NCBI RefSeq assembly: GCF_964213995.1
Contig: NW_027590142.1
Location: forward strand, 930,001-994,000
Length of the DNA: 64,000 nucleotides
Direction: 5' to 3'
Source of the DNA: Mustelus asterias
Taxonomy: Eukaryota
Under the pieces are notes generated by a model. It made no database searches. It had not been told where the DNA came from and worked only from the letters and a program-made list of their open reading frames with translations. Below, piece after piece: positions 1 to 53,517 of this stretch. A program made the position numbers and the translations under genes. Position 1 is the stretch's first letter, and every line of letters begins with the position of its first letter.

Positions 1-110
1 CGGGCCTGATGTCTTTCAGTTCCGCTCTGAGATCCAGTGTCCCAGAGCAGTCCAGCTCTGCAGTCTCCAGCTCCCCGTCATATCAACCATCAGCTCCGGG
101 CAGCAGAGCG

Positions 111-153
111 ATGGGAATTCTTCTCGTTTTCAGCCTGTGTGTCTATTTACCCA
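111..153 (+). CDS. NARTCR: NARTCR V leader exon (MGILLVFSLCVYLP)
   Basis: ATG at 111, hydrophobic signal peptide, phase-1 donor GTGGGT at 154; splices in frame to the AG at 301-302. Confidence 0.88.
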
Positions 154-302
154 GTGGGTACTGATCACACTAAACTATATTGTGTGGATTGAATATAAAG
201 CTGCCCCAGTCCATCCCAATTACAGACACTGTCTGGGGTTTTAGCCCCGTTGTGTGGTTCAGCTCTGATGATCCTTTAAACTCTCTTGTGTTTAATTTCC
301 AG

Positions 303-591
303 GATCTTTCAGTCAGTCAGTGACACAGAGCCCGGCAGCGGTGACCAGGAAGGAATGTCAGTCCCTCACCATCACCTGTGTTTTCTATGGTGGATTCTAC
401 GCTCGTGCTTTGGAGAGGGCGGAATTCTTCAAACAAACACAGACCGGAACGGAGCGGGAGTGGATCTCCGGCGGAGGGAGATTTGTTGTGTCGGTGAATA
501 AAGCAGAAAAGAAATTTTCGTTGGAAATTCGGGATGTGAGAGTTGAAGACACCGCCACCTATTTCTGTAAAGCTCATTACAAAGGAGACGG
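303..591 (+). CDS. NARTCR: NARTCR V exon (IgNAR-like V domain)
   Basis: QSVTQSP...KECQSLTITC...EREWISGGGRFVVSVNKAEKKFSLEIRDVRVEDTATYFCKAHYKGDG. VNAR-type short FR2/CDR2 region, extra FR1 Cys (356-358), followed directly by an RSS. Confidence 0.92.
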
Positions 592-629
592 CACAGTGAT
601 GGGCCTCGGCTTCCCATCATACTAAAACT
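592..629 (+). other. RSS of NARTCR V (22-bp spacer)
   Basis: CACAGTG 592-598, spacer 599-620, ACTAAAACT 621-629. Confidence 0.88.
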
Positions 630-983
630 CTCACTGAAGATTTTCACATAAACAAATGAAAAAGCGGAGTTAATCTTCCCTGAAACCCGCACAGTTCCAT
701 CGCACACCGTCAATCCCACAGTCACGTTTATAATGAGGATTTGATTATTACCGTTAACATTCTGAGTGTTTTAAACAAGGAGTGTGTGCGGAAGCTGACA
801 TCTTTCCCGGGTTAGGTGTTGATGAATGAAGAATGGAAATGACTGATCCCAGTTACAAACCCAAACAAAAGATGGGATCATCGTCTCTCAGCTGGAACTG
901 GGAACCGCAGTCCCCGCTGTTTAATTAATGTCCCTACATCTCACACAGTATCTGGGGTTTTGATGCTAAATTATAACACTGTG

Positions 984-1000
984 TAAATGGTTAGGAGAGT
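984..1000 (+). CDS. NARTCR: NARTCR D segment TAAATGGTTAGGAGAGT with 12/12 RSS
   Basis: 5' RSS GGTTTTGAT(956-964)-12-CACTGTG(977-983); 3' RSS CACAGTG(1001-1007)-12-GCAAATACC(1020-1028). Only one frame (KWLGE) is stop-free untrimmed. Confidence 0.9.
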
Positions 1001-1377
1001 CACAGTGAAAAGAAGCTGAGCAAATACCTGTGCACAATTACAATATACATTCGCAGGGCCCAGAGAGAGAATTATGGATTGATGTTATTAGCGCTGCAAT
1101 CTGGATTAATTACATTGCACTTTCCATCACTCACATCTTTCTTTGATATTTTTCTCAGTTAATATGAAGCGACTATCTCCTCCCTGGGGATATTTACTGA
1201 GAACGCGGGGCCTCAAAAAGAACAGTTTGAACCGACAGAGACTTCAAAACATTGAATAATATTTATTGATTTAAATCCCCCGAATAATTGGGAACTTCCA
1301 AATGACTGTGATGATTTCCCGTCAAGTTGAGTAGTCGGTAGTTCTTGTACGGGGAGACTGAGATCGGTATCACTGTG

Positions 1378-1429
1378 TACAAATGGTATGATGCCGATGG
1401 CTCAGGGACGGTGGTGACTGTCACAGCCG
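1378..1429 (+). CDS. NARTCR: NARTCR J segment (YKWYDADGSGTVVTVTA)
   Basis: RSS AGTTCTTGT(1340-1348)-22-CACTGTG(1371-1377); NAR-like DGxGT motif; phase-1 donor GTAAGT at 1430. Confidence 0.92.
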
Positions 1430-3624
1430 GTAAGTGACTCCAAACCCCGCCGTGTTACAAAATGTCTCGTTTAACGTTCACCGTCATTTTATTATCGTGA
1501 TCTGTATCGTTTCAGTCCAATGGATACGGATAAGGATCTGTTTACAGATCCGTTACAGATTTTGATTTGGGAGCAGGACGTGATTTAGGAGTCGATCCAG
1601 GTCAGCCCTGGGGAAAGCGAGTGTGAGACCTGATGCAGAAGGCGGTCAGCGCTGTAGGGATAGTGGTGGTTGTGGGGATGGAAGTGGAGGGGTGGGGGGT
1701 GGATGGGCTGTGATGTGAGGGTTGACAGTATTTGGGTCATTATTAGTTTAACGGGCACATCGGGGTTAACATCCATATCAAGGGCTTTCACTATCCTGAT
1801 AGTTTATAACAAATTATCGGCACTCTGGAATCCACCTTCGGTGTTAATTGTGACCGAGGGAGATCTGCCTGTCTCGAACAGCCCGGCACTGGGATCGCAG
1901 AGCTCTCTCCTGGGCAGTAGACTGAAGTCCCTGCCGTGTAATATGAAGAAGCTACCGGTTGAATGAGATCAGTGCCACCGCGGACAGTTCATTTAACCGC
2001 AGCAGTTCATCCAATAACTGTCCCGGGAGACAAATAGAATAAAAGAGACAACGGACTTCAGACATTAGAGACTCTGTTTAGTTCCAGATTGTATTTTTCA
2101 ATAGAGAAATCAGTTACTGAAATTAGTGAAATTGTACCTGACATTCCTCTAAACATCCTCCATATAACCAATCACTTTCCTCATTTTCTACCGTCAAAAG
2201 AGGCATAATTTAAAATGAAACTAAATCCCCCACACACGAAAACACGTTTGTTTGAAATTAATATAACTGGAGTTTTACCCTTTTTATACTGAAATATTAA
2301 ACTAAACTGACTTAAACCTATACTTTATTTCTAATGTCCAAAAACACTGAAGAGATTAGTTAAACTACCTTTGTTTCCTGACAGTTGTCATTTACAGAAG
2401 AAAATAAATACATCAATCCGAATCAATTCAAAAAGGGAGAGCCAGAATGTGGATCTCGCTGTCACATTGAATGTTTGGAGCAGAGGCGAGTGGTACATTT
2501 ATGGGAAGACTCGAAAATACTGAAGGGAGAACAGAATAGACCGACAGAGTGAGCTGGATAGAAATGGCCAATTAGATTTCTGAAGGGTGAGGCTGGTCGG
2601 GTGTTTCTATGCAGACATCAGTGAGTTAGGCCGAATTGCCTGTTCTTCTGCCGTTTCTATACAATGTAAAATTTAGAGAAAATTCCGCCCAGAGACCGCA
2701 GAAGAGAATCAGTTAAAGAGCAAAAAAAGAATTGAACTTGTCAGAGAGCCAGAAGAGGCAGTTCCCAGTGAATAACTGTAAAACCACTGCAGAAACTGAA
2801 CGGAATAAACCCAACTGACAACTGAGAGACTTTGGGAGAACTTTCCACGATTGCAACGAACCCAAACAGCGCAAAATAAATGTTGAAACCAAATAAAACT
2901 GACTGTAAATAGTTCTAAGTAAAGAGAAAAGGAGAAAAAATGTTCCTGATAGTTCGATAGCAGAAGAAAACCAAATAGATGAACAAACAGAGATTCCCGG
3001 GAGGTGTTAAACAGATATAAATGAATGACATTTGAGCACCGATGTTCAACATCATTCCATCCCCATTGGAGCTGATGGATCACAGTCATTCCCTGTTGGA
3101 TCTTGCTGTGCGCTACGACGTAACGCAGCTGGGTTAGTCACTTGGAACGGATTGCCTCACTGGTAATAAAATGTTCCCTCGTGTTTGTCTCTTAGGAAGG
3201 GAAATAGAAAGTGAAATGTAACATACATCATTGAATCATAGAGTGCAAAAGGGTGACATTCGGCCCCTCGAGTAGATGCAGCCCTTTATAAGTGAAATCC
3301 AGTTCTTCCCCTTCGTCATGAATTTTCCCCATAACCCTGTTTTATTCCTGTTCCGGCGCTTGACTATTCCCGTGTGTTTGTCACTGTTGATTCAGCTCCC
3401 ACCATCTATTCCGACATTGCATTCCAGACCGTTGGATCTTGTTGTGTAAAGAAAACCTCATTTTCCACTGGTTTACAATAATAATAACAGTGAATACAGT
3501 TCCATCAGATTTAAAGTGATAATAACACCGAATAAAACTGAGCTACTCCCGCAATTGACACATTCCCCTGGTAAACAGTGACTGAACCACAGAAGAAAAC
3601 GCTGTTTCTTTTTTTATCCTCCAG

Positions 3625-3930
3625 ATTCTAGTTCCCTGGTGTCGAAAAATCCGCCTCTCCAAACCTCTGCTGCTGGTGACACGGTTGCTTTAAGCTGTGA
3701 ATATTCAGGTCTCTGTCAGTACACAGTACACTGGTACAGTCAGCCCCCAGGGCAGGCTCTGAAATACCTGCTTCAGACACACACTTCAGGAGAGGAGAAT
3801 AAAGAAAATGCTGCCGGGGGGAGAATTTCTGCTTCTATCGATTCTGCCGAGAAAATCAGCTGGTTAAAGATCTCCAAACTGGAACTGAGCGATTCCGCTG
3901 TGTATTACTGTGCACTGAGTCAGAGCACAG
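3625..3930 (+). CDS. TRDV: Leaderless NARTCR-supporting TCR-delta V exon
   Basis: Acceptor ttttatcctccAG ends at 3624, in frame with the NARTCR J donor. DSSSLVSKNPP...LSCEYSGLCQYTVHWY...DSAVYYCALSQST; CDR1 Cys at 3714-3716; no leader exon seen in 1430-3624. Confidence 0.92.
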
Positions 3931-4104
3931 CACAGTGATACAGAACATGGAGAGAGCTGTACAAAAACCTGGACATGGTGAGTATTACAGACACAGTGAT
4001 ACAGAACACAGAAAGAGCTGTACAAAAAAATGAACATGGTGAAAATCACAGACATAGTGATACAGAACACAGAGAGAGCTGTACAAAAACCTTAAAATGG
4101 TGAG
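3931..4104 (+). repeat. Tandem 61-bp repeat, each unit carrying a 23-spacer RSS (three copies)
   Basis: CACAGTG(3931)-23-ACAAAAACC(3961); CACAGTG(3992)-23-ACAAAAAAA(4022); CATAGTG(4053)-23-ACAAAAACC(4083). Confidence 0.95.
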
Positions 4105-20836: not shown

Positions 20837-21156
20837 GTAGCCTGGCTGCATCCGCAGTCATACACCAGCCAGAGGCAGAAGTGATGGTCCAGCAGGGAGC
20901 CACCACGACAATCACCTGCTCCTACACAGAGGTGGAGAGGGCTTGCTTGGTCTGGTACCGGGAACCTCTCCACCCAGCCATGGGAGGGAGTCCCGAGTAT
21001 ATTCTCGTCCGCTGCACCGACGGTTTCAGCGACAGCGCCACATTTTCCAGGCGTCGCTTTTCCTCCTCCCTGAGCAAAACTTACAGAAGCATCAGTCTGA
21101 CAGTTGCACCCGTGACAGCTGAGGACTCCAGGAAATACTTCTGCGTCTTAAACACA
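20837..21156 (+). CDS. Divergent TCR alpha/delta-type V exon with two extra Cys and a 23-RSS
   Basis: AVIHQPEAEV...ITCSYTEVERACLVWYR...PEYILVRCTDG...RRFSSSL...VTAEDSRKYFCVLNT; RSS CACATTG(21157)-23-GCATAAACT(21187-21195). Confidence 0.85.
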
Positions 21157-21289
21157 CACATTGGCACATTCCGGGCAGCAGTCTCTGCATAAACTGCAGG
21201 TTCCTCTCCCAGGCAATGGAAGGTCTCGGCATGATGTGTAGTCCCATTGTCCAATGTCGGTGTTGTAGAATTGCAGCATCAACACAGGG

Positions 21290-24682: not shown

Positions 24683-24734
24683 ATGAGCATGATGCTAGCG
24701 ATATTTCTCTGTGTGTTCCTTGTCATCTTATCTT
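24683..24734 (+). CDS. Leader exon of the IgH-like V (MSMMLAIFLCVFLVILS)
   Basis: ATG at 24683, phase-1 donor GTGAGT at 24735; shark IgH-type leader ending CVQS after splicing. Confidence 0.9.
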
Positions 24735-24853
24735 GTGAGTAGTTGGATATTATCAGAAAATTTGCACAGTTTCTGTTGGACATCAATCATTCCCTGTGGA
24801 ATGACACAAACTGGATTCACCTCACCATAATTATTGTTTCTTCCCTTTAGCAG

Positions 24854-25158
24854 GCGTCCAGTCGGATGTGGTGTTGACCCAGCCAGAGGCAGAAACGGGG
24901 GTAGTAGGGCAATCCCTGACCCTAACCTGTAAAACCAGCGGATTTGATCTTGGGAGCTACACCATGCTCTGGTACCGGCACAGTCCTGAGACGGGACTGG
25001 GATGGCTGCTTTGGTACAATAATGAAAATAGAAACGATTACAATCAGCAGCTTGGTGGACGATTCATTGCATCCAAGGACCTTTCCAACAACGTATTCGA
25101 TCTCTCTGTCAGCACGTTAACAATAGCAGACAGCGCGACGTATTACTGTGCACAGCAG
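24854..25158 (+). CDS. Immunoglobulin heavy-chain-like V in the TCR-delta locus (IgHV / TAILV type) with a 23-RSS
   Basis: DVVLTQPEAETG...LTCKTSGFDLGSYTMLWYR...GLGWLLWY...RFIASKDLSNNVF...DSATYYCAQQ resembles shark IgM VH; RSS CACACTG(25159)-23-ACAAAAACC(25189-25197). Confidence 0.9.
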
Positions 25159-26454
25159 CACACTGATATAGATCACATCCAGACTTGTACAAAAACCCAC
25201 AAGAGGAATTGCAGCCATTTCCCTGCTTTTCTTTCCATTCATGGGATGCCCATCCTTAATTTTCCATGAATTGAATGGTTTCTTAGGTCATTTCAAATGG
25301 TGCTTGAGAGTCAACCGCATTGTTGCGTGGATATGCCGTCACATGTAAGCAAGATCAAGTAAGGAAGGCAGATTTCCTTCCATAAAACGACATTCGTGAA
25401 TCAGATTATTCTTCACGACAATCGACAATGGTTTCATGGTCATCATTAGATTTTTGCTTTCAGATTTTTATTGAATTCAAATTTCAGCATCTGCCTTTGT
25501 GGGATTCAAGCCCCATTTGCACAGTAATTATTCCATTGCTCTGTGGTTCTTATGTGGAACTTGCTACCACAGGGAGTAACTAAGGCAAATCGCACAGATG
25601 CATTTAAGGCGAATCTAGTTAAGCATACGAGGGAGAAGGAAACCTAAAAATATATTGATCGGATTGGATGAAGAGCATTGGAGGAAAGGCCATCCGCGGC
25701 AATAATATCAGTATGTTGGAACGACCGAAAGACCAGCGTCTGTGTGTCGATTCTATGAGTCGATGTTTCTGTTGCATTGATGAGTGCGTTCTGTTCACTG
25801 TGCCACCAGAGAGCATTGGGAGAGCAATGACAATGAGAGCATTGACAAATACATAGATTAGCTACCGTTTTTTCTTCCACTATTGAGCAAAGGTATACAC
25901 GCGAGACGAATGAAACAACCGAGAAGCGCGACTGACCCTTCCTGTTCCAGTCTGACAGAATTACACAGAGCTGTTGGTGAAGGACACTCACGCGGAGTTC
26001 AGGCCAGATAGCTGATCATTGAATGTGGATGCACCCTGTGAATCTTGACCAGGACCAGAATAGACGAAAGAAAAGCAAGTTTCTCCTGAAACTGAGAAAT
26101 TCGAAAGGTTATTCCTTACTGCTAAACATGCGGATTATGTATTGAAACGTTTCTGATTGTCAGACGCAATGTGACAATGTGTGCTCTTCACTAATACTAA
26201 GTAACTGAAAGCAGCAGATTATTTCGATGGCTATTGAGATAATCATTGTCGCAGTGTGAACTTACGTTCGCTCACAATAGTGGGTCCATGCGCATCCTTT
26301 TAGCCACATGCTTAATGTTAATTTCACATGGCGCATATTTCATGCACGGTTGTTTCAAACATAAAAACTGCGCAAATACCTGCTCACAAAGCTGTTTTGA
26401 TTTGCCCAGGATGGAACAATACAACAAAACTTGCAAACATTGCTTCCTTCATAC

Positions 26455-28080: not shown

Positions 28081-30253
28081 AACACCTTGAATATATTCCA
28101 TTCTCAACGAAAGTCATCACTCAGGAAACATCCAACACCCATCCATGTCTCACCCTTCAGAGCAAAGCTATGTAAGAATAACATCCTGCAATTATGTGTG
28201 GAGTCTTGAGAAACTGAGCTGACACAGAATATTCGCCATCCAAATTCGTATTTATATGGAATACCCAAGGAGAGATAATTGCATTGGCAGGAAGGCAGGT
28301 GTCAAAATCACGCAGATTTAAATGATTTGCACTCGTTTCTGGTTGTTCAGGAGCCAAATAGTTAGAGTGGGGGAGCCGGTTCGTTAGTGATTTTCAAAGG
28401 GGAGTACGTTCAGTATTTACAATGTCAACATTGTAAATATTATGTGTTAATTGCAGGGAGGTGGAAACATGTCGAAAAGGGGTTGAGTGATGGAATCTTC
28501 CATCCTGGTAGAACAGAAGGTTTATAGGAAGAACATCACTTAGGACTTCATCTCCATTTCTGATCTCATCCTGACCTAACAACATGTGTCCGCTCATTGA
28601 TGGTTGTGGGTTTTCAATACTGGGATATGGGCAGTTGATAGCCCACTGGTATTGACACTAGATTAGCGACTCAAGGACCCAGGTTACTAAGTCGGGCGGG
28701 TACCCAAGTTCAAATCCGAACAAGGCAGATGATGAAATTTGAAGTAAATAAAAAAACCATTGAGACCATTGTCGATTGTTGTCAAAACCCATCTTGTTTA
28801 CTAATGCCCTTTTAGGGAAGGAAATGTGCCTAAATGTGACTCCAGAAACACAGCAATATGGTTGACTCTTAAAGGTTTCTGGTCAATGGTTGCCCCCAGG
28901 ATTTTCCAGCTATGAAAGAAGCATTTCGATGACCACCTGACACGCATTATATACAAGGTTATGGACCAAGAGCTGGAAGATGTGATTGGAATGGTTACAT
29001 GTTTGATGGCTAGCACAGACAAGATGGGCCGAAGGTCTGTAGAAGTTTATGACTCTTTGACTAACTCGACAGCTCCCCTTTCAAATCAGCCACGGGACAT
29101 TAAACGCCCAACAGACAAGGCAGATTATTTGATACCTCATCTAAACATTGATGAGTGATATTGCAGAACTTCCTCAACACAAACAGAAAATGCTAGAAAA
29201 TCTCACAGCTCTGACAGCATCTGTGGGGAGCGAATAGTGCACACGTTTCGAGTCTAGATGACCTTTCGCTAGCTCTGACGAAGGGTTCTCTAGGCTCGAA
29301 GCAAAAACAGAAAATTCTGGAAAATCCCAGCATCTGTGGAGAGAAAATTGAGTCAAGGTTTTGAGGCTGGATAACAGAACCAAGCTTACCTGATCTGACT
29401 CCAGATGCACAGCAATGGCTTGCCATCTGGAATGATCTAACAATTGTCCGGTTTCTCCTACAGTCCGAAAGACGTGCTGGTTAGGTGCCTTGACCATGCT
29501 AAATTGTCCCTCAGTGTACCCGAACAGGTGCCAGAGTGTGGCGACGGGGGGATTGTCACAGTAACTTCACTGCAGTGTTAATGTAAGCCCAGCTGTTGCA
29601 CTAATTAATAAACTTTAAACAATCCATTCAATTCAGGGCAATTAGGGATGTGAGCGAAGTCCTCACCCCTTGAGATGATAAATAAAACCAAAACCGATTC
29701 ACCTACTTCTCATCAAATCCTTCGATGGATGCCCTTCTCAACGTCTCTGGAATCGTCTCCAACCTGTGTTCTTTTTCAATCTGTTGTTTCTATAGTTTTT
29801 GCCTTTTGAAAGTGCCCCTAATTCTTTTCGCCCCTCAATCCGCAACTGTGCCTTCAATTGCCTTCTTCCTGAGCTGGGGAATTCTCGAGGTTAATTCCTC
29901 ACCTTCCCGCCTGCCCGCCCCCCCTCCCCCAATCCCCCCTCCCTCATCCCCGCCCACTTTTCCACCTCAGCTTCCTTACCTCCGTTCTTTTAACAATTTT
30001 CCTGAAAAATTACCCCAACCGCAGAACATCCTGCTGGTTATCTAACCCCTACAGGTGTGCTGTGCCAAATATTTTTAGCCAGTGCTCATGTGAAATCACA
30101 TGGACGGTTTTAATCGGGTGCGTTGCTTCATGGGAGTGGAATTGATAGTTGCATCAATCAGCGACATTCTGCTGTCGCAGCTGAGATGATACATGCGACA
30201 GCAGTAGCAGCAACAGCTGCTGAAGAGTTTTTGTGCTGGCATGTATCACTGTG

Positions 30254-30268
30254 GGGATATCGTGGGAC
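30254..30268 (+). CDS. TRDD: TCR-delta D segment GGGATATCGTGGGAC (12/23 RSS)
   Basis: AGTTTTTGT(30226)-12-CACTGTG(30247-30253); CACAGTA(30269)-23-GCAATAACC(30299-30307); open in all three frames. Confidence 0.93.
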
Positions 30269-30392
30269 CACAGTAGTTGAATCTCCCTTCACGCCCGTGC
30301 AATAACCTCACAGCCCACAGGAGAACACCAAACTCTCTCAACAGCACACTCCCAGCACCACAATGGATCTTGTTATGGAATCAACGGGTGTG

Positions 30393-30455
30393 TAACGTAT
30401 GGAGAGACTGCAAAGCTCATCTTCGGCAATGGAACCAGGCTGATTGTGGAACCCA
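30393..30455 (+). CDS. TRDJ: J-delta (TYGETAKLIFGNGTRLIVEP)
   Basis: GGATCTTGT-12-GGGTGTG RSS, FGxG motif, donor GTAAGT at 30456. Confidence 0.9.
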
Positions 30456-31544
30456 GTAAGTAACTAATCCTGGATAATGATCACTCAACATATTATTTTC
30501 TCCCTATCACTTCATTGAGACAGACAGTCGCTGTGTTATTTCAATTATCACTTGTTCTATAGACCGGGTGAGGAACTCTCATTGGGAATCCAAAGAGCAG
30601 CTTCAATGGACATTGAGATGGAGCAGATGAAATCTTTTTTGATTCCACAATTCACGATTGTTTCCTTAAAACATTTAATTGGCCTTGAATCATAAAAACC
30701 CACTTGGGTAGCGAGCAAGGAGATGTGTTAATGAAATGTTTGTGCGTAATGCAATTAAATGACACATTGATAGATAGTTAGAAGAGGCACGCCCCGATAG
30801 AGTCATAGAGATAGACAGCACCGTAAAAGTCGCTTCAGCCTAACGAGGGGCAGAGATAGCGCAGACAGGAAGACACGTATCCCCATTTTAGAGGGATCAA
30901 TGAGCAGTGTTCTTTTGGTGGGGGTGGGGGGGGATGCATTGATTTAAGGCAGGGATAGGCGATTTGGAGGGAATGTGACGAGAACCTTTTCGTCCTAAGG
31001 GTGACAGAAATCTGGAACTCACTGTCTGAAAGGGTGGTGGTGACAGAGACCCTCACAACATTTAAGGAGTGTTTGGTTATGCGCTTTTGATGCCATATCA
31101 TACACGGCAATGGACCAAGTGCTGGAAATGGGATTAGAAAAGTCAGCTGGTTTATCTTTGGCCGGGGCAGACACGATGGGCCGAAGAGCCTTTGATATAC
31201 TGTAGACTTCTATTCTATTCCCTTGTGGGAGAGTCTAGGACCAGAGGCTAAATCCCAGAATAAGGGGTTGCCGATTTAAAGAGAGAGATGATGAAGAATT
31301 TCGTCCTTCAGACGGTACCGAATCTGTGGACTTCGTTACCACAGAGGGATGTATAGGCTGTCGTTAAGCATTTTCAATGCTGGGATAGACAGATTTTTAA
31401 TCCGCAAGGAAATCGAGGGTTATGAGGACACTGGAGTTGAGGATTATCACATCAGATCAGTCGTGATCTCATTGAATGATGGGTGAGCCGAATGGCCTCC
31501 TTCTGCTCAGGGAGAAGTATCGGGGAGATGGAAAAAGCGAATCA

Positions 31545-31860
31545 GAGAATCCGACAGTGCAGAAGGAGGCCATTCAGCCCATCGAGTCTGCACTGACCAC
31601 AATCCCACACATGCGCTATCCCCATAACTCCACATATTTACCTTGCTAATCCCCTGACACTACGGTCAATTTAGCTTGGTCAATCAACCTAACCCGCAAT
31701 CTTTGGACTGTGGGAGGAAACCGGAGCACCCGGAGGAAACCCACGTAGACACGGGGAGAACATGCAGACTCCACACAGAGAGTGACCCGAGGCCGGAATT
31801 GAATCCGGGTCCCTGGCTGTGAGGCAGCAGTGCTAACCATTGTGCCACTTTGCCGCCCTC
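31545..31860 (-). mobile_element. tRNA-derived shark SINE (HE1-like)
   Basis: Minus-strand head GGCGGCAAAGTGGCACAATGGTTAGCACTGCTGCCTCACAGCCAGGGACCCGGATTCAATTCC with a CR1-derived tail. Confidence 0.8.
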
Positions 31861-32119
31861 CGTCAATTTCTTGTCCAAATATTGTGCTCTTTAAAATATG
31901 TTTAAAAAAACAGTGGGAACTAAGTCTGTGTGTGTGTGGGGGGGTGGGGGGGGGGGGTGGGGGGGGGTGGTGGGGAGGGGGGTGGACAGGGAGGAAATGG
32001 TTATATTTGGTTCGGGAGGGAAGCTAATTAAAAAGAGTAATAATAACTCAAAGTGAATGTAAGCTAGACCTGGGTTCATGTGGCTGGGTCGATATTTTGT
32101 AGTAGTTGTTACAACTGTG

Positions 32120-32178
32120 CTATGGTGGAATTGTGAAGCTTGTCTTTGGCGAAGGGACAAAACTCACTGTGGAGCCCA
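32120..32178 (+). CDS. TRDJ: J-delta (YGGIVKLVFGEGTKLTVEP)
   Basis: ATATTTTGT-12-AACTGTG RSS; donor GTAAGT at 32179. Confidence 0.92.
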
Positions 32179-32591
32179 GTAAGTCCTCAACTATTTTCCA
32201 CCATGACCTATTTACAGTAGGGGGACAATTGAAAATTACACTTCGAATATATATCACCAAATCATGTTTTTTGTTTCAATCGGTATCTACTTTTGGGGAT
32301 GAGAGGTAATATAATGGCCATTAATAACGGGGAGAGGTCCTGTGCCGTATGTGTGAAAGTCCCTGCCCCTGAGCCAGAAAAGCCGGGTTCGAGTCCTAAT
32401 CAATGTACTTGATGGCCAAGGAAGGTGAGGCACTGGTGGTAAGAGTGGGAGAGATTCCTGCTCAGCCACGTTTGATATGGAGCGTGGCTTCCTCGATCTC
32501 TAAGCCCCTGGCAACAGTATAGTGACCTGCTCCAGAAATAACTAGCTCTGAAAACAGATCAATTCTGCCTTTGTGCACCATTGGGTGCAGT

Positions 32592-34453
32592 AAGGGAATT
32601 AGAAGTCACGAGATGTTCTTGGCAGGCAGCATTAAGGAGAATCCTAAGGCATTCTATTCATACGTTAGGAACAAAAGAGTTGTCAGGGAGAAAATCGGTC
32701 ATCTCAGGGACAAAGGAGGGGAATTATGCTTAGAACACATGGGAATAGGGGAGATCCTAAATGAATACTTTGCATCGGTATTCACGAAGAAGAGGGGCGT
32801 GTTAACTGGGAGTGTCTCGGAGGGAGGTGTTGACCCGCAAGAGAAAATCTCCATTACAAGAGAGGAAGTGTTAGATTTTTTACGGAACATTAAAACTAAC
32901 AAAGCCCCAGGGCCTGATGGCATCTATCCGCGACTGCTCAGGGAGACAAGAGATGAAATTGCTGGGCCTCTGACGGAAATCTTTGTCGCTTCTTTGGACA
33001 CGGGTGAGGTCCCTGAGGATTGGAGGATAGCGAATGTGGTCCCGTTGTTTAAGAAGGGTAGCAGGGATAACCCAGGAAATTATAGGTTGGTGAGCTTGAC
33101 GTCCGTGGTAGGGAAGTTGTTAGAGAGGATTCTTAGAGACAGGATGTATGTACATTTAGAACGGAACAATTTCATTAGTGACAGACAGCATGGTTTTGTA
33201 AGAGGGAGGTCGTGCCTTACAAATTTGGTGGAGTTTTTTGAGGAAGTGACAAAAACGGTTGATGAAGGAAGGGCCGTGGATGTCGTCTATATGGATTTCA
33301 GGAAGGCATTTGACAAAGTCCCACATGGCAGGTTGGTTAAGAAGGTTAAGGCTCATGGGATACAAGGAGAAGTGGCTAGATGGGTGGAGAACTGGCTTGG
33401 CCATAGGAGACAGAGGGTAGTGGTCGAAGGGTCATTTTCCGGCTGGAGGTCTGTGACCAGTGGTGTTCCGCAGGGCTCTGTACTGGGACCTCTGCTATTT
33501 GTGATATATATAAATGATTTGGAAGAAGGTGTAACTGGTGTTATCAGCAAGTTTGCGGATGACACAAAGATGGCTGGACTTGCGGATAGCGAAGAGCATT
33601 GTCGGGCAATACAGCAGGATATAGATAGGCTGGAAAATTGGGCGGAGAGGTGGCAGATGGAGTTTAATCCGGATAAATGCGAAGTGATGCATTTTGGAAG
33701 AAATAATGTAGGGTGGAGATATACAATAAATGGCAGAGTCATCAGGAGTATAGAAACACAGAGGGACCTAGATGTGCAAGTCCACAAATCCTTGAAGGTG
33801 GCAACACAGGTGGAGAAGGTGGTGAAGAAGGCATATGGTATGCTTGCCTTTATAGGACGGGGTATAGAGTATAAAAGCTGGAGTCTGATGATGCAGCTGT
33901 ATAGAACGCTGGTTAGGCCACATTTGGAGTACTGCGTCCAGTTCTGGTCGCCACACTACCAGAAGGACGTGGAGGTGTTAGAGAGAGTGCAGAGAAGGTT
34001 TACCAGGATGTTGCCTGGTATGGAGGGTCTAAGCTATGAGGAGAGATTGGGTAAACTGGGGTTGTTCTCCCTGGAAAGACGGAGAATGAGGGGAGATCTA
34101 ATAGAGGTGTACAAGATTATGAAGGGGATAGATAGGGTGAACGGTGGGAAGCTTTTTCCCAGATCAGAAGTGACGTTCACGAGGGGTCACGGGCTCAAGG
34201 TGAGAGGGGCGAAGTATAACTCAGATATTAGAGGGATGCTTTTTACACAGACGGTGGTGGGGGCCTGGAATGCGCTGCCAAGTAGGGTGGTGGAGGCAAG
34301 CACGCTGACGTCGTTTAAGACTTACCTGGATAGTCACATGAGCAGCCTGGGAATGGAGGGATACAAACGATTCGTCTAGTTGGACCAAGGAGCGGCACAG
34401 GCTTGGAGGGCCGAAGGGCCTGTTTCCTGTGCTGTACTGTTCTTTGTTCTTTG
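32592..34453 (+). mobile_element. Young 5'-truncated CR1 LINE with an uninterrupted RT frame
   Basis: 602-aa ORF 32571-34379 (VPQGSVLGP, KFADD); (TTCTTTG)n tail. Confidence 0.95.
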
Positions 34454-34651
34454 TATGTCCTTTGTGTTATAGAATCGTATAAGATCCATTGTTCCTCTTT
34501 TGGCGTAAATAAATTTTAAGATGAACTCTTCGCACACCATAACAGCTTTCAAGGCAACTAGTTAATCTTCCAGTTTCCTTGCTATGTGTATTAGCCAGAA
34601 ACTGAATGACCTTATGCATTGGTCGCTTTCTGCTGGCAATGTGTCACGGTG

Positions 34652-34717
34652 CTTATTACCATGACGGTAGTTAGAAACTCACTTTTGGCAGCGGAATCCA
34701 ATTGACTGTTGTGCCAA
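34652..34717 (+). pseudogene. TRDJ: Pseudo J-delta (YYHDGS*KLTFGSGIQLTVVP)
   Basis: Heptamer CACGGTG 34645-34651; in-frame TAG 34672-34674; donor mutated to CTAAGT. Confidence 0.85.
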
Positions 34718-35341
34718 CTAAGTGCCAGCTGATTTGTCTTTATCCATCGATGGACTTTTCTGCTAAACCCGTGTCTGGCAAATGGTAACAAAGAGCGAAA
34801 ATAATTAATTAATTTCATGTAATAATAAATTGTGAAATTGATCAACATATCATTAGGTAGCTAAGTAGAGAGACAGAAATCCAGGGGATATAATCAGTAA
34901 ATTCGCAGACGACAGAAAAAGTGGTGGTGTGGTAAATGGAGAGGAGGAAAGCCTTACATTATAGTATGATACGGAGGGAAAATGGGCAGAGCAATGGTCA
35001 AATGGGCAGAGCAGTGGAAAATTGAAATTTAACTCTGAAAAGTGTGAGATAACACATTTTGGGAGGACTAACATGACAGGAGAATACAGCGAAGTTAATG
35101 AAATCCTGCATGGAAGGAACGTTAAACTTCTAACTATGTGTTGTACTTTTGTGAAATAGAGAAAATCAAATATAATTGGAGTTAGTTGGGAGATGGTTTC
35201 GGGGAGAAGTGCAGTTGCATTTTCCTCCTGCAACTTGAATCCGAATCTATAGTCAAAACACCAAGCAAGACAATAAAGACTTCTGGCATTACTGTTCCCA
35301 CGAGAGTAACAGATATGTTTAGCATCTGCAACGACAGTGTC

Positions 35342-35399
35342 ACCCCCACTGATGACAGGCTGATCCTTGGCACTGGAACAAAAGTCACTGTGGAACCCA
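35342..35399 (+). pseudogene. TRDJ: Pseudo J-delta (TPTDDRLILGTGTKVTVEP)
   Basis: F->L in the FGxG motif, heptamer CAGTGTC, donor mutated to ATAAG. Confidence 0.82.
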
Positions 35400-35725
35400 A
35401 TAAGCACCCTCGCAAAATGTAACGATGAAGCACTGCGGACGCAGAAAATTTGAACATTATTTACTGCGAATAAAATTCACATTTGTAAAGTGGATAGAAA
35501 TATATGTCATATGGAGCTAACAGGCTAGAAGAAGGAATTGCATTTAAATTGGTGGATGTGGGGAAATATGTTTCTGTCAAGATCTCTCCTGTCCTGGCTA
35601 TTGATGTCAGCAGAATCTGAAATTGAACTCAAAACTCAAAGTCAGGAGAAATAAAATATAAATAAGTCTTATATTTCGGCTCATCTGGTTCGGTTTAATT
35701 TTTTGTCGCATTGTGTGCAGATGTG

Positions 35726-35784
35726 CTAGCACCAGAACTTTAAAACTTATATTTGGCAGAGCAACACATTCACTATCCGACCCA
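35726..35784 (+). pseudogene. TRDJ: Pseudo J-delta (STRTLKLIFGRAT..., frameshifted)
   Basis: ATTTTTTGT-12-AGATGTG RSS; FGRA, apparent 1-nt deletion, donor mutated to ATAAG. Confidence 0.75.
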
Positions 35785-35987
35785 ATAAGACATTTAAAAT
35801 CTTCAGTTTGGATCCGGTTAGAATTTGTAATGGCTGAAGTTTCATTCAAGGATCTCAAGGGCTCTTCCCAATGTAAACTTTGTATATTGCCCTGCCCCCG
35901 AATTAGTGAGTATGCTTTATCATGTATTAAATGACATCTGCATCTTCACTCCAATGGAAGGTTTATGTCTGTGCCCTTTGCACTGTG

Positions 35988-36048
35988 CATTATGATGATA
36001 CCGTGAAGCTCACATTTGGCAGCGGCACCCAGTTGACTGTTGTGCCAA
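35988..36048 (+). CDS. TRDJ: J-delta (HYDDTVKLTFGSGTQLTVVP)
   Basis: GGTTTATGT-12-CACTGTG RSS; donor GTGAGT at 36049. Confidence 0.94.
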
Positions 36049-36300
36049 GTGAGTACGATTGGAAGTTACATTCATTTTGTTTCATGCAGATTATTTTTTC
36101 GCTTTATGGTGTCTGACAAATAGCAAGTCAGCAACGATCCAAAGTATCACATGGAACATAAGTGAAGGCATTTTGTCTGTAAGATGAGCTTCAAAAAGAT
36201 AGGGAGACAGCTAACTCAGGTCTCAATGCTTATTTAGACATGCTGTAGGTGACAGACCAATCTTTGGGCCTCAACAATATGACATGCATTGATGGGTGCC

Positions 36301-39300
36301 TCATAGAAACATAGAAACATGGAAGATCGTAGCAGGAGGAGGCCATTCGGCCCTTCGAGCCTGCTCCGCCATTCATTACGATCATGGCTGATCGTCCAAC
36401 TCAGTAGCTTAATCCTGCTTCCTCCCCAAAATCTTTGATCCCATTCGCCCCAAGTGCAATATCTTGCCACCTTTCGAATACATTCAATGTTTAGGCATCT
36501 ACTACTTCTTGTGGTAATGAATTCCACAGGCTCACCACTCTTTGGATGAAGAAATGTCTCCTCACTACCGTCCGAAATGGTCTATCCCAAATCCTCAGAC
36601 TATGACCCCTGGTTCTGGACTCCCACCATCGGGAACATCCTCCCTGCATCTACCTGTCAAGTCCTGTTAGAGCTTTGGAAGTCTCTATGAGATCCCCCCT
36701 CATTCGTCTGAACTCCAGCGAAAACAATCCTAACCTAGTCAATCTCTCCCCATACATCAGCCGCGCTATCCCCGGGATCAGCCTGGTAAAGCTTCGCTGC
36801 ACTTCCTCGGGAGCAAGAACATCCTTCCTCAGAAAAGGAGATCAAAACTGCACACAATATTCCAGGTGCGGCCTTACCAAGTCCCTGTATAATTGCAACA
36901 ACACACCCCTGCTCCTGTACTCAAAACCTCTCGCAATGAAGGCCAACATACCATTTGCCATCTTTACTGCCTGCTGCACCTGCATGCTTACCTTCAGCGT
37001 CTGTTGAACAAGGACACCTCGGTCCCGATGTATTCTCCTCTCCCAATTCACAGCCATTTAGGTAGCAATCTGCCTTCTTGTTTTTGCTTCCAAAATGACT
37101 AACCGCACATTTATCTAAATTATATTGCATCTGCCATTGTTTTGCCCACTTGCACAACCTGTCCAGATCTGGTTGAAGGGTCTCTGCAGCCTCGTCACAG
37201 TTCACCCTCCCACCCAACTTGGTATCATCTGTAAATTTTGAGATGTTACATTTTGCTCCCTCGTCCAAATCATTAATACATATTATGAATAGCTGGGGCC
37301 CCAGCACCGATCCCTGTGGCACTCCACGAGTTACAGCCTGCCAATTTGAAAATGACCTAATAATTCCTACTCCTTGTTTCCTTTCTGCCAACCAGTTTTC
37401 TGTCCTTCTCAATACACTTCCCTCAATCCCATGCACTTTAATCTTGAACAACAATCTCTTGTGCGGGACTTTGTCAAACGATTTCTGAACGTCCAAATAT
37501 ACCACATCAACTGGCTCACACTCGTTACATCTTCAAAGAATTCCAACAGATTTGTCAAGCATGATTTCCCCTTCATAAATCCGTGCTGAATCTGTATGAT
37601 CCTGCCACAGCTTTCAAAATACTCCGCTATAAGTACTTGATAACGGATTCGAGAATTTTCCCCAGTACCGATATTAGAAGACACAAACAACATGCCAAAA
37701 ATTGATGACAGGAAGGCTATGGCCGGTGAGAACCGAGAAACTATCATTATCACGAAAGAGGTAGTGATGGGCAAGTTATTGGGGCTAAAGGTAGACAAGT
37801 CTCCGGATCCTGGTAGAATGCATCCCAGGGTACTAAAAGAGGTGGCAGGAGAAATAGCAAATGCACTAGTGATAATTTACCAAAATTCGCTGGACTCTGG
37901 GGTGGTTCCCGCAGATTGAAAAACAGCAAATGTGTCGCCACTGTTTTAAAAAGGAGGTAGACAAAAGGCAGGTAACTATAGGCCGGTTAGCTTAACTTCT
38001 GTAGTAGGGAAAATGCTTGAATCTATCATCAAGGAAGAAATAGCGAGACCTCTGGATATGGATTGTCCCATTGGTAAGACGCACCATGGGTTCATGAAGA
38101 GCAGGTCATGTTTGACTAATTTGGTGGAATTCTTTGAGAACATTGCATGTGCAGTGGACAACGGGGAACCTGTGGATGTGGTGTATCTGGATTTCCAGAA
38201 GGCATTTGACAAGGTGCCGCACGAAAGACTGCTACAAAAGATAAAGGTGCACAGTGTTACGGGTAATGTATTAGGATGGATAGAGGATTGGTTAACTAAC
38301 AGAAGGCAAAGAGTGGGCGTAAAAGGGTGTTTTTCTGGTTGGCGATCAGTGACTATTGGTGTGCCTCAGGGATCAGTGTTGGGACCGCAATTGTTTATGA
38401 TTTACATCAATGATTTGGAGTTGAGGACCAAGTGTAGTGTGTCAAAATTCGAAGATGACACTAAGATGGGTGGAAGAGCAAAGTGTGCAGAGGATGCTGA
38501 AAGTCTGCAAAGGGATATAGATAATCTGAGTGAGTGGGCGAGTGTCTGGCAGATGGAGTACAATGTTGGTAAGTGTAAAGTCATCCATTTTGGTAGGAAT
38601 AACAGCAAAATGGACTATTATTTAAATGGTAAAACTTTGCAGCATGTTGTTGTGCAGAGGGACCTGGGTGTCCTTGTGCAGGAATCTCAAGGAGTTGGGT
38701 TACAGGGGCAGCAGGTAATTGAGAAGGCAAATGGAATTTTGTCCTTCATTGCGAGAGGGATGGAGTTTAAAAATGGCGAAATTATGTTGCAGCGTATAAG
38801 GTGCTGGCGAGGCCACAGCTAGAGTACTGTCTACAGTTTTGGTCTCCTTACCTGAGAAAGAATATACTGGCACTGGAGGGGGTGCAGAGGAAATTCACTA
38901 GGTTGGTTCCGGAGTTGAGAGGGTTGGCTTATGACGAGAGACTGAGTAGACTGGGGCTATACTCACTGGAATTCAGAAGAATGAGGGAGGATATTATAGA
39001 AGCATATAAGATTATGAAGGGAATAGATAAGATAAAAGCAGGGAAGGTGTTTCCAGTGGTGGGTGAAACTAGAACTAGGGGGCATAGCCTCAAAATAAGG
39101 TGAAGCAAATTTAAGACTGAATTGAGGAGGAACTTCTTCACACAAAGGGTTGGGAATGTGTGGAATTCCCTGCCCAGTGAAGCAGTTGAGGCTACCTCAA
39201 TGAATGTTTTTAAGGCAAGGATAGATACATTTTTCAACAGTAAAGAATTAAGGGTGAGTGGGCGGGTAAGTGGAGCTCAGTCCATGAAAAGATCAGCCAT

Positions 39301-40640
39301 GATCTTATTGAATGGAGGAACGAGCTCGAGGGGCCAGACGGCCTATTCCTGCTCCTAGTTCTTATGTTCTTATGTTCTTATTAGGCTTATTGGTCTATGA
39401 TTCCCTGTTTTCACTCTGCCACTCTTTTTGAATATTGGAGTGACATTAGCTACCCTCCAATCTGCAGGGACTATTCCAGAGTCTATAGAATCCTGTAAGA
39501 TGACCACCAATGCATCCATTATTTCTAGAGCCACTTCCTTTAGTACTCTGGGATGTAGATTATCAGGCCCTGCGGATTTATCCGCCTTCAATTACATCAA
39601 TGTTCCCAGCAACATTTCTCTACTGATGTTGATCTCCCTCAGTTCTTCCCTCTCACTCAATCTTGCATTCTCCAACATTTCTGGTATTTGATTTGTGTCC
39701 TCATTTGTGAAGACAGAACTAAAGTATGTATTTCAGCTAGTCAGCCATTTCTTCGTCCCCTAATATACATTCCCCTATCTCTGTCTGTAAGGTTCTACAT
39801 TATGAAACTCTTAGTATCAGCCTTTATGTTCCCTGCAAGCTTAACTTCAGGCTGTATTTTCCTCTTGTTAATCAATCCCTTCGTACTTCTTTGCTGAATT
39901 CTAAACTGCTCCCAATCCTCAGACCTATTATTGGTTTTGGCCAATCTGTATGCTTCTTCCTTGGATCGGATACTATCTCTAATTTCCTTTGTAAGCCTGG
40001 ATTGGCCCTCTTACCCATTTTGCTTTTGTGCCAGATAGGGATAAACAATTGCTGCAGTTCCCCCATGCGCTTTTTGAATGTTTGCCGTTGCCTATCCATT
40101 GTCATCCCTGTAAGTAAGTCTCCCCAATCTATGAAGGCCAAATCACGCCTCATATATTCATTGTCTCGTTTATTAAGATTCAGCACTGTCGTCTCCGAAT
40201 CAACTACTTCACTCTCCATCTTGATAAAACATTCTCTCATGTTATGGTCGCTCATCCCCAAGGTGTCTCGCACAACTAGATTGGCAATTATTCCCTTCTC
40301 ACTCCACAATACCCAGTCTAAAATGGCCTGCTCCCTCGTTGGTTCCTTCACATATTGGTGAAGGAAGCCATCCCGTATCCACTCAGGAATTCCTCCTCGA
40401 CGGCATTGTGGCTAATTTGATTTGTCCAATCAATGTGCAGATTAAAATCACCCATGATCACCGATATTCACTCATCACATGCATCTCTAATTTCGTGTTT
40501 AATGCCATTTCCAACATCACCACTGCAGTTTCGGCGTCTATATATGACACCCATCTGATGTTTTCTGCCCCTTGGTATCTCTCAACTCTACCCATACACA
40601 TTATCAGAGCTAATATAGTTTCCCACCATTGTGTTAATTT
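36301..40640 (-). mobile_element. CR1 LINE (minus strand) split by a younger plus-strand CR1
   Basis: Minus ORFs 36921-37505, 39370-39591 and 39872-40351 are colinear (NHRPISL / ISVLGKILES). Confidence 0.85.
37678..39378 (+). mobile_element. CR1 LINE (5'-truncated) nested in an older CR1
   Basis: ORFs 38013-38822 and 38801-39103; (TTCTTATG)n tail; TATTAG duplicated at 37672-37677 and 39379-39384. Confidence 0.88.
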
Positions 40641-40664
40641 CCTGGGGGGGAGGTGAAACTGGGG

Positions 40665-41005
40665 GGAGGTGATGGCCTAGTGGCAATATCGCTAGATTAT
40701 TAATCCAGGAATTTAACTAATGTTCTGGGGACCCACGTTCGAATTCTGCCACACAGATGGTGGAATTTAAATTCAAAAATCTGGAATTAAGAATCTACTG
40801 TTGACGATGAAAACCATTGTCGATTGTCGGAAACACCTATCTGGTTCAGTAATGTCCTTTAGAGAAGAAAATCTTCCGTCCTTATCTGATCTGGCCGACA
40901 TGTGCAATTTGGTTAACTCTCAATTGCCTTCCAAGGGCAATTGGGGATGGGCAATAAATGCTGGCCAGCCAACGATGCCCATGCCCCACAAATTAATGAA
41001 AAATA
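40665..41005 (+). mobile_element. tRNA-headed SINE with an L2-type tail (related copies near 25300, 28650, 50250 and 61740)
   Basis: Head GATGGCCTAGTGG...GTTCGAATTC; tail GGGCAATAAATGCTGGCC shared with the L2-like fragments. Confidence 0.65.
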
Positions 41006-41650
41006 TCTCCCTTTTGGAAAATGAGCCTGAGTAACAGCAGATTCAACTAAACGTAAACGCAACTTTCATGCTCAACATGTCTGTTTACCTCTTTGAAATC
41101 TAACAGGACTATGACAATAGGAACAGGTAATGCTGGGAAAAACCCCAGCAGGTCAGGCTGCATTTGCAAGAAGAGAAAGCTTAGCTAATAAATGAAATAC
41201 TATCCCTTGAATTGTATTTCTTTTCTGCCAGAGGTTGAGGCGTCGCTGGCAAGGCCATGCTGCAACTCTCTCATTGGCCGACCAGTTAAGCCATTTCGGA
41301 GATTGGCAGAGCAGGCACTGAGGGCTGAAGAGCCTCCCCTTGTTCATATGTTTCCTAACCTAGGCTCAGAGGCAAAATATATTTGTTGCTGGGGAAGGGC
41401 GTGGAGGGCTACATTTGACCAGTGACTATCTTGGCTCAGAAATTCTTCACGTTAATAGAATCTTAGAGCATCCAAGGAGGCTATTCGGCCCATTTAGTCT
41501 CTGATGGTGGGGAGGGGGAAGATATGCAATGTCTGATACCTGCAGCGAATTAGTGGCTGTTCCAGATTTGTCTTTGCCGCAAATTATCTGAAATCTGAAA
41601 CACCTATCTCAAGAGAAGGTTTCTTAACTGTCTGAGCAATTGTTACTGTG

Positions 41651-41700
41651 CTACAGTAAATTAACGTTCGGCAGCGGCACCCAGGTGACCGTTATACCAA
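41651..41700 (+). CDS. TRDJ: J-delta (YSKLTFGSGTQVTVIP)
   Basis: Heptamer TACTGTG 41644-41650 with a weak nonamer CTTAACTGT at 12 bp; donor GTGAGT at 41701. Confidence 0.87.
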
Positions 41701-42481
41701 GTGAGTGTGAAGTCAGTATGTTTTTTTCTTTCGTTCCACATCTCCTCTGTTATCTAGTTGTCTGTTGTAAGTAGTCTAGTCAAGCTGGGCAGAGTGCCAA
41801 TATAATATGTGGCATGCAGGCGAAGAGACTGCACGGTTTTGCGTCAGTTTTGATCCAGCTCAGCTTAGCCAGGCATTAGAGATACATGGGATAGGAGCTG
41901 GAACTGCCTCAGTAATATGATGTTGAACTGAGAAGCTGATTTGTGTCCTGTCAACGGGATAGGAAGATTCCATCCAGAGAGTTGACCCAAAAGAAAGAGG
42001 GGAGATGGGTAAGCATCATTGTTCTGTTTAAACCTTTGTAATTGTGAATTACACAGGCTTTTCATTCTCTTGGTGAAAAAGAAATTCTCCTCATGTTAGT
42101 CCCATATCCTTAGACTATGAAGCCTGGTTCTGGAACCTGCCGCCATCCTGAATCTACCCTGTCTAATCCTGCACTATGGGTTTTAATGAGATCTTCTCCT
42201 CCTGCCTCCCTTCTTCTGAACCCCAGACAATAAAATCCTAACCGACTCAATCTCCCCTCATACGTCAGTATTGCCACTCCAGAAACTGTCCAGTGAACCT
42301 TCGCTGCACTCCCCCTATAGCAAGAACATCCTTCCTCGGATATTATTTTGCATTTGTTTCTTGGTAATAATGAACTGGCTGTGGAAGCAAGTCGAATCTT
42401 AAAAACCTTAGCATGAAAAATAATCCTTACATTGCTCTTCATGTGGGTTATGTCGATTTTGTACCATCTGGTATCACTGTG

Positions 42482-42541
42482 CAAACTATGCAACCACCAA
42501 GCTTATCTTTGGCAGTGGAACCAAACTCACTGTAGAACCCA
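42482..42541 (+). CDS. TRDJ: J-delta (NYATTKLIFGSGTKLTVEP)
   Basis: CGATTTTGT-12-CACTGTG RSS; donor GTAAGT at 42542. Confidence 0.94.
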
Positions 42542-49912: not shown

Positions 49913-50224
49913 AGGCGAAAGGCCCGGTGGAGCCTAAATTGAGCGTCTTTTACCCGCCAGTGCCACGGGGAGCCACCGGCATCGACACAGCTGCAGTATG
50001 CTTGGCCTCGGACTTCTCGCCCAACGCAATCATGCTCTCCCTGTACACGGGATCGGGCCAGGAGGTCAATGTGACAAGATCCAGTGTCCTATTGGAGAGC
50101 GGGAATTACAGGAGCTCGGGTTTTCTCTCTTTCCGCCAATCCGAGAAATCGCCAAACATCACGTGCAAGGCATTTCACGATAATCGAAATTACTCAGTAA
50201 ACATCCCGCCCACAGTTGAAATTG
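49913..50224 (+). CDS. TRDC: TCR-delta constant region exon 1 (Ig C domain)
   Basis: Acceptor ttttcAG ends at 49912, phase 1. AKGPVEPKLSVFYP...AAVCLASDFSP...VLLESGNYRSSGFL...NITCKAFH...; donor GTAAGT at 50225. Confidence 0.93.
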
Positions 50225-50639
50225 GTAAGTTTATTTTATTTTCGTTCACGTGATGTGGGTGTCGTTGGCTTGGCCAACATTTATTGCCCATCCTAAATTG
50301 CCCTTCAGCAGAGGGCATTTAAGAGTCACTTGCCGGCCAGACCATGTAAGGACGGCAGATTTCGTTCGCTGAAGGAAGTTAGTGAACCAGATGAGTTTTA
50401 ATGATAATCGACAATGGTTTCAGGGTCATCATGAAACTTTTAATTCCAATTTTAAAAAAAATGTTCAAATTTCGCAGCTGCCATCCCCAGGTCAGCATTC
50501 TGGGTCGTTGGATTACCAGTCCAGTGACAATGCCTCCTCTCAGAATGTTTTATGACAGGAAGAACTTGCACTAAATATTATCCATCCTCTTAACGACCTA
50601 AGGACTCTCGGTGTCATCGTCACTCAAAGTGTAGTCTTT

Positions 50640-52445: not shown

Positions 52446-52931
52446 ATAAGAGCTAACTATTATAATTCAGGGCAGTGTGCAGGACCCGTAACTGCTGGTA
52501 CATCACCGAATTTAGGAACGTATTAAATACTAACCAGGGTACTGGAGAATCCCGTTCCTCTGGAGAAATGCCCTGATATCATTTAATCCACTGCAGAGCT
52601 GAAATCAGGCCTCGGTTTCACGACGTTTTCGGAAGACAGTGAAATACTGCACTGATGGAACGGCTCTGGATCCTGGGTTTTAATCCCTGATGGGGAATCT
52701 ACCCTGCACTCTTTGAACTCAGAATTGGGACGAACTAAATGGCAGAGCTACCAATGTTTCTCCGTTGTGAATAATCAAGTGAACAAGTCCAATCGTGCTG
52801 TTTGATTCTTACTTTCTTCGTGGCTTTTGGTTATGACAACAACATTATTCAAAGTGATATTGAGAACAAACATGGTTACAGTAATGTCACTTGCTCACTT
52901 AATAAGTCAAATGTCATTTTTGCCCTTCCAG

Positions 52932-52994
52932 ATAAACCTAAATGCCCTACAGGTCGAAGTGATTCCTTGACAGAATCAAGTGACACGGAAAACG
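52932..52994 (+). CDS. TRDC: TCR-delta constant exon 2 (connecting peptide with interchain Cys)
   Basis: cccttccAG | DKPKCPTGRSDSLTESSDTEN | GTATGT; 63 bp, phase 1-1. Confidence 0.87.
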
Positions 52995-53407
52995 GTATGT
53001 GCTTTATTCAACATTTATCAAAGTAAAATACTTGCAAATAGACGGATTGATAAGTGGACAAATAGGCACGGATACAGACCCGGAGATTGAATGATAAACA
53101 TATAGTGAGATGGGGAGAAATATAGATTGTCACACAGAGTGAGGGAGAGAGATATATAAATCGAGGGGGAAAGCGAGAGAGGAGGAGAGGCGGGGAGAGA
53201 GAGAGAGAAATTCAGAGTGAAAGAGAGATGAAGATAGACAGGCAAGCAGACGGTCGGACGGACGGACTGACAGAGATGGACAGACGGACGAAAGTCAAGC
53301 AGTTAGATAATGGAAAAAATATCACATTAGTGGTATACAGTTGTTTTTCAATTCAAAATGATATATCCATTAAACCAGATCTATCATTTGTTTCTCTTAT
53401 TTGGCAG

Positions 53408-53517
53408 ATCGACTGAGGGTGAACTTTTTGTCTTTGACGGTGATGGGGCTAAGAATTTTGTTTTTCAAGAGCATTGTCTTCAATGTCATGATGACGGCCA
53501 GGGTGTGGCTATTTTGA
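53408..53517 (+). CDS. TRDC: TCR-delta constant exon 3 (transmembrane, stop codon)
   Basis: DRLRVNFLSLTVMGLRILFFKSIVFNVMMTARVWLF*, with the conserved R, K and N of the TCR alpha/delta TM; donor GTAAGG at 53519 implies a non-coding exon 4. Confidence 0.94.

Follow-up and report, generated by a model that had tools for sequence, protein, structure and literature searches.

A putative NARTCR double-V cassette heading a compact, apparently multiplied TCR-delta unit in Mustelus asterias

IgNAR loci have three diversity (D) segments, and their joining (J) segment is followed by IgNAR constant (C) exons. The NARTCR system, known from nurse, elephant and white shark, combines an IgNAR-like (NAR) variable (V) segment with a T-cell receptor (TCR) delta chain: a leader, NAR V, D and J lie upstream of a leaderless supporting V-delta, the two V segments rearrange in separate V(D)J events, and the NAR domain is unpaired (available text of PMC1845163, PMC5931798, PMC3457774 and PMC6795676). 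In the available text of PMC1845163 the NAR V is marked by a leader, an a-b loop cysteine and absence of the WYRK tryptophan, and the supporting V by lack of a leader and a cysteine in complementarity-determining region 1 (CDR1). Here we describe a cassette of this type in a 64,000-nucleotide stretch of Mustelus asterias DNA (contig NW_027590142.1, positions 930,001 to 994,000; hereafter the window, with its first letter as position 1).

The window cassette has the same arrangement, with a NAR V exon at 303–591 and a supporting V exon at 3625–3930 that carry all of the published sequence hallmarks of NARTCR, and its signals are laid out for two independent V(D)J events, as in the available text of PMC1845163 and PMC5931798. 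With a probability of about 0.9 it is a NARTCR cassette of the working type, and it adds one member to a system already known, its predicted functionality being read from intact anatomy. The a-b loop cysteine and the phenylalanine at the tryptophan site are Cys18 and Phe41 of record P0001, and the CDR1 cysteine is Cys30 of P0002. The best ten of 849 solved-structure matches to the NAR V are all shark IgNAR V (VNAR) domains (E 4e-18), and it shares with them a short domain, with 63 residues between the canonical cysteines as compared with 71 and 73 in the other V exons. Among 63 longer relatives of the NAR V, which come from sharks and rays wherever the species is named, the a-b loop cysteine is kept in 61 and the phenylalanine in all 63; a second V more than 50% identical to the supporting V is present in 62, its CDR1 cysteine in 60, and both cysteines in 58.

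Unlike IgNAR, the cassette has one D, the J is followed by and predicted to be spliced to a TCR V rather than to IgNAR constant exons, and phenylalanine replaces the tryptophan; no IgNAR constant exon was seen in the window, where the sole C region found is delta-type. The white-shark gene LOC121270138 (P0016), labelled NARTCRdV in Table S1 of PMC12227049, is 77% identical to the NAR V and 81% identical to the supporting V. In a tree of 24 V rows, including five ordinary V-alpha/delta segments and no IgNAR sequences, the NAR V clade (100/100) and the supporting V clade (95/95) each contain the corresponding white-shark P0016 domain, and both stand apart from the five ordinary segments. Of the phylogenetic comparison proposed in an initial annotation of this DNA, the grouping with published NARTCR V segments is obtained for white shark. 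The identity given in that annotation, a double-V NARTCR belonging to a known system, is borne out by the VNAR matches, the hallmark residues and the clades shared with the white-shark gene, and agrees with every sequence-level NARTCR test applied. An NCBI gene model for M. asterias (P0003) contains the translations of leader plus V and of J plus supporting V letter for letter. The AlphaFold model of P0003 is compatible with two V domains (predicted local distance difference test, pLDDT, 77.2; predicted template-modelling score, pTM, 0.55), and a fold search with it returned only generic two-V matches at template-modelling (TM) scores of 0.38 or less and was uninformative.

The leader-V-D-J had been described as intact, and a frame check together with a scan for recombination signal sequences (RSS) confirmed its frames, RSS and splice sites. 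The leader plus V frame is open when spliced from the donor at 154, and an alternative donor at 158 breaks it. The V, D and J signals are 12/23-compatible (22 – 12/12 – 22) and V to J spans less than 1.3 kb, the spacers of the NAR V and NAR J being 22 bp and not 23. Five RSS with perfect heptamers were observed in positions 1–4000, as against a mean of 0.006 and a maximum of 1 in 500 base shuffles. As had also been claimed, the J donor at 1430 is in frame with the acceptor at 3625, the NAR J plus supporting V exon being open in a single one of the three frames, and the supporting V has a 23-RSS of its own, which is perfect. This RSS is the first of three tandem copies with a 61-bp period (window 3926–4104). 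The second copy, at 3992, looks usable, and joining there would be non-coding and would keep the first RSS intact for a retry; the tandem repeat is common to sister copies (models P0072 and P0109).

From the leader through C-delta, no exon has a stop, a frameshift or a damaged signal. This intactness, together with the retained hallmark residues, argues against the cassette being a silent copy, an intact-looking recent duplicate that is neither rearranged nor expressed; many near-identical sister cassettes exist, and the unit of 53 kb described below includes a degenerate V and weak J-delta RSS, as such a copy might, but we consider this explanation unlikely.

A real leader exon serving the supporting V, which the initial annotation had named as speaking against its interpretation, was looked for among the open ATG-to-GT phase-1 mini-exons in 1436–3600 (n=8), and in this sequence test none of the eight combined hydrophobicity with a good donor. 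The most hydrophobic scores 2.09 and its donor matches 2 of 9 positions, and those with fair donors reach a hydropathy of 1.6 at most, as compared with 3.07 and 3.7 in the two real leaders. The candidate at 3042–3132, which matches an exon placed before a sister supporting V in NCBI model P0073, was rejected as a signal peptide on its hydropathy of 1.24. That gene model is what favours another reading, in which the exon at 3625 is a V-delta of the ordinary kind, equipped with a leader, and the V-D-J before it is an unrelated IgNAR-type relic. Set against it are the hydrophilic character of the exon, the lack of any leader-like sequence among the other mini-exons, the second V carried by all but one of the relatives, and a delta-type C region with no IgNAR constant exon seen, and we regard a separate origin of the two halves as very improbable indeed.

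A route from these segments to a receptor can be proposed from the 12/23 rule and the NARTCR descriptions cited above, applied to the parts present and their compatibility. In a developing T cell, RAG would assemble the NAR V (22), D (12/12) and J (22) within 1.3 kb; in a separate event it would bring the supporting V (23) together with D-delta and one J-delta, which lie 26–39 kb downstream. With no leader on the supporting V, both rearrangements would have to succeed in a cell. A single transcript from the NAR leader would then be spliced from leader to NAR VDJ to supporting VDJ to C-delta and would encode a delta chain whose extracellular part has three immunoglobulin (Ig) domains, with two independent CDR3 loops. 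The NAR domain would have no partner and bind antigen alone, and the supporting V would pair with V-gamma. A disulfide between the a-b loop and CDR1 cysteines probably holds the NAR domain on the supporting V, as hypothesised in print; 58 of the 63 relatives keep both cysteines, and the structure model, at pTM 0.55, yields no distances. Records P0036 and P0052 have the form leader–NAR V–J–supporting V–J–C with the same J-to-V junction. In a toy simulation of 20000 NAR junctions 6669 were in frame, and about half of these (3438) were stop-free.

The spacers would also permit the NAR V, with its 22-RSS, to skip its own D and J and join the 12-RSS of D-delta directly, just 30 kb away, deleting the supporting V and producing a one-V delta chain. 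No such product occurs among the records examined, and the a-b loop cysteine would presumably be left unpaired, so that direct joining seems a decidedly improbable use of the segment.

Four contig runs from one study, representing at most three samples, were aligned to positions 1–4300 at 90% likeness. The aligned contigs cover introns, as DNA would, and the 153/303 and 1429/3625 joints are not listed in these four DNA-like runs, which has no bearing on splicing; nor does the depth summed over them measure copy number. In run X3 a contig (depth 3.5) connects 592 with 994, two extra letters lying between, and is weak evidence of a V-D join with the 3′ RSS of D retained; partial joins in any order are described for the shark Ig heavy chain (IgH) miniloci (available text of PMC2435157). 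In run X1 a contig (depth 14) links 986 with 1396 by way of 25 other letters; judged by eye, these translate into the J peptide of sister model P0070, and this sister-cassette D-J joint may be somatic or germline-joined. In run X4, a joint of 576 to 1263 ends at no segment boundary.

Several points weigh against a working cassette that is spliced and rearranged as proposed. The V-D joint is known from a single contig of low depth, matched at 90% likeness, whose source may be a sister cassette or an error, and the D-to-J joint carries a sister J and is therefore uninformative on the window copy. The NCBI models are automatic predictions and no proof of the 1429/3625 splice. In five of the 63 relatives one or other cysteine is absent or could not be scored, and four of the six J-delta segments have weak RSS.

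The cassette heads a compact unit of ~53 kb within the window, in the order NARTCR, V, VH-like (heavy-chain-like) V, D, six J and C-delta (Table 1). No further NARTCR V or supporting V was found between 4100 and 30254. The cassette had been called the one closest to D-delta, which is true if only NARTCR cassettes are counted, but a degenerate V (20837–21156) and a VH-like V (24854–25158) lie nearer. The former, a divergent V that is probably a pseudogene, recurs in three sister models and has no supported place in the tree. The VH-like V shares 64% identity with the V in catshark model P0079 and 69% with a V in Cetorhinus P0040. With its leader and its 23-RSS, and lying just upstream of D-delta, it resembles the TAILV / Ig-TCRd V rows in the PMC12227049 table. 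Good 12-RSS lie at 35987 and 42481 for two of the J-delta segments, and those of the other four are weak. Identity of the C region to its counterpart in catshark P0079 is 58%, and to that in epaulette-shark P0083, which is read as alpha-type, 32%; in a PDB search C-delta matched Ig C1 domains only, and weakly. No motif of V, J or J-alpha was found in 53517–64000, a stretch too short to judge whether TCR-alpha follows.

Table 1. Segments, exons and recombination signals of the NARTCR cassette and the downstream TCR-delta unit (window coordinates).
Feature	Position	Strand	Remarks
Leader exon of NAR-type V	111..153	+	ATG at 111; phase-1 donor at 154; best 8-residue hydropathy 3.07
NARTCR V exon, VNAR-like	303..591	+	a-b loop Cys; Phe replacing WYRK Trp; 63 residues between canonical Cys
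NAR V RSS	592..629	+	perfect heptamer, 22-bp spacer, 2-mismatch nonamer
5′ 12-RSS of NAR D	956..983	-	RSS consensus scan
NAR D, 17 nt	984..1000	+	fully open in 1/3 frames
3′ 12-RSS of NAR D	1001..1028	+	RSS consensus scan
NAR J RSS, 22-bp spacer	1340..1377	-	RSS consensus scan
NAR J	1378..1429	+	phase-1 donor at 1430, 8/9 consensus positions matched
Leaderless supporting V-delta exon, CDR1 Cys	3625..3930	+	acceptor at 3624/3625
Supporting V 23-RSS, perfect	3931..3969	+	RSS consensus scan
Two more tandem RSS copies, 61-bp period	3992..4091	+	second: intact heptamer, 2-mismatch nonamer; third: broken CAC
Divergent V exon, open frame, four Cys (probable pseudogene)	20837..21195 (V 20837-21156)	+	degenerate 23-RSS, no leader found
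VH-like V	24683..25197	+	leader 24683-24734, exon 24854-25158, 23-RSS
D-delta 30254-30268	30226..30307	+	5′ 12-RSS and 3′ 23-RSS
Six J-delta	30393..42541	+	FGxG-type motifs at 30422, 32145, 35366, 36015, 41667, 42508
C-delta exons	49913..53517	+	49913-50224, 52932-52994, 53408-53517; open frame

The initial annotation read the window as belonging to one ordinary locus and had no view of the unit's apparent multiplication in M. asterias. C-region searches and cluster look-ups identified 15 C-delta gene models in this species on scaffolds of 14 different lengths, two copies sharing one 20.4-Mb scaffold. The 15 models and the window have 13 distinct sequences across the C stretch that all share. 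Eleven of the 12 C regions that are full-length are distinct, with differences at up to 30 aligned positions, and they form eight groups at three or fewer differences and six groups at five or fewer. These groups outnumber the two alleles of one diploid animal, and on the assumption of a single-animal assembly at least about six loci would be needed. The first J-delta also varies between copies. A NARTCR cassette is tied to 11 of the 15 models: seven themselves contain a NAR V, one contains a supporting V, two begin with a read-through of the tandem RSS as at window 3975–4040, and one has a gene number adjoining that of a NARTCR model on a scaffold of equal length. The other four contain J and C or C only and are uninformative on this linkage. 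The C-region tree places 10 of 13 Mustelus copies in one group (90/87) and leaves the copies partly unresolved, so that their single origin rests on distances, with at most 19 C-region differences among Mustelus copies and at least 51 to three other sharks.

On these automatic gene models we lean towards a houndshark TCR-delta that would have passed from one translocon to six or more (up to ~15) diverged mini-loci, every one of them with a NARTCR cassette, a D, a J set and a C-delta isotype. The many copies could instead be an assembly artefact of unpurged haplotypes and false duplications over an ordinary single translocon. Three observations count in this direction: 13 of the 14 scaffolds are shorter than 2 Mb, several copies pair at 0–2 residue differences in the manner of alleles, and three models are identical across the shared stretch. 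The number of differing full-length C regions and of their groups, the two copies on the 20.4-Mb scaffold and the differing first J-delta segments speak against it, and an artefact is unlikely.

Rhincodon, Pristiophorus, Scyliorhinus canicula, Chiloscyllium and Cetorhinus each yielded one C-delta model in the searches and Heptranchias two, in a count that is incomplete in that several species with NARTCR matches returned no C-delta model. The two Heptranchias models (P0074 and P0076) lie on one 1.7-Mb scaffold and have common J-region text, and one is preceded by a NAR J and a supporting V, which hints at a second, independent tandem duplication. Older blot data reportedly indicate multiple TCR constant genes in horned shark, and a precedent for multiple C-delta genes in sharks is possible. 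A literature search that did not take in the 2006 NARTCR paper or a 2021 review of shark Ig and TCR loci gave no account of TCR-delta in Mustelus or of a shark with numerous C-delta genes.

The TCR-alpha/delta locus is described in translocon form in the available text of PMC12227049 (section 6), and no species in the table of that paper has more than one TCR-delta C model; elasmobranch IgH is described there as miniclusters. In white shark the seven NARTCR rows of the table are spread over 8.4–17.1 Mb, whereas the window cassette is 26 kb from D-delta, and relatives of the window copy appear to differ further in having many cassette-plus-C-delta units. Models from white shark and horn shark (P0004 and P0005) have two NAR V-J units before one supporting V, and the white-shark model is marked as germline-joined in the same table. 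The shark IgH miniloci resemble the window cassette in having V-23/22, D-12 and J-22 signals over a short distance; they form multiple clusters with rearrangement inside a cluster (available text of PMC2435157), a layout that the TCR-delta units may parallel, and they differ in their two D, single J and Ig constant exons. TCR-mu of marsupials and monotremes is likewise a delta-derived chain of three domains with a supporting V, encoded in duplicated V-D-J-V-(J)-C clusters (available text of PMC7615758). Its origin is convergent, from VH and not from NAR V (available text of PMC3457774), and its supporting V is germline-joined or lacks D, whereas that of the window would use D-delta and six J-delta segments common to other V.

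By itself the cassette is one more intact germline copy of a system that was described in 2006. If the multiplication is real, convergence of this two-V receptor of sharks with TCR-mu would extend from the shape of the protein to the layout of the locus, and its T cells would have to deal with the multi-locus exclusion problem that is known for IgH in sharks. A TCR-delta of cluster type, its C isotypes up to ~18% apart, would blur the divide between translocon and minicluster, offer a natural intermediate form, and make rearrangement within a unit and control of one delta chain per cell testable. The ligands of NARTCR are still unknown according to the available text of PMC7615758, and a species with many NARTCR copies may suit a search for them.

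Two further kinds of feature were seen in the window. An isolated reverse-facing site resembling a 23-RSS is present at 25764–25802, with a perfect heptamer and a 2-mismatch nonamer, and no J motif was found after it. LINE-like (long interspersed element) retrotransposon remnants, so labelled by eye, occupy 56100–58900 and 4110–4700, and the stretch 4110–4300 is present at very high copy in the four contig runs.

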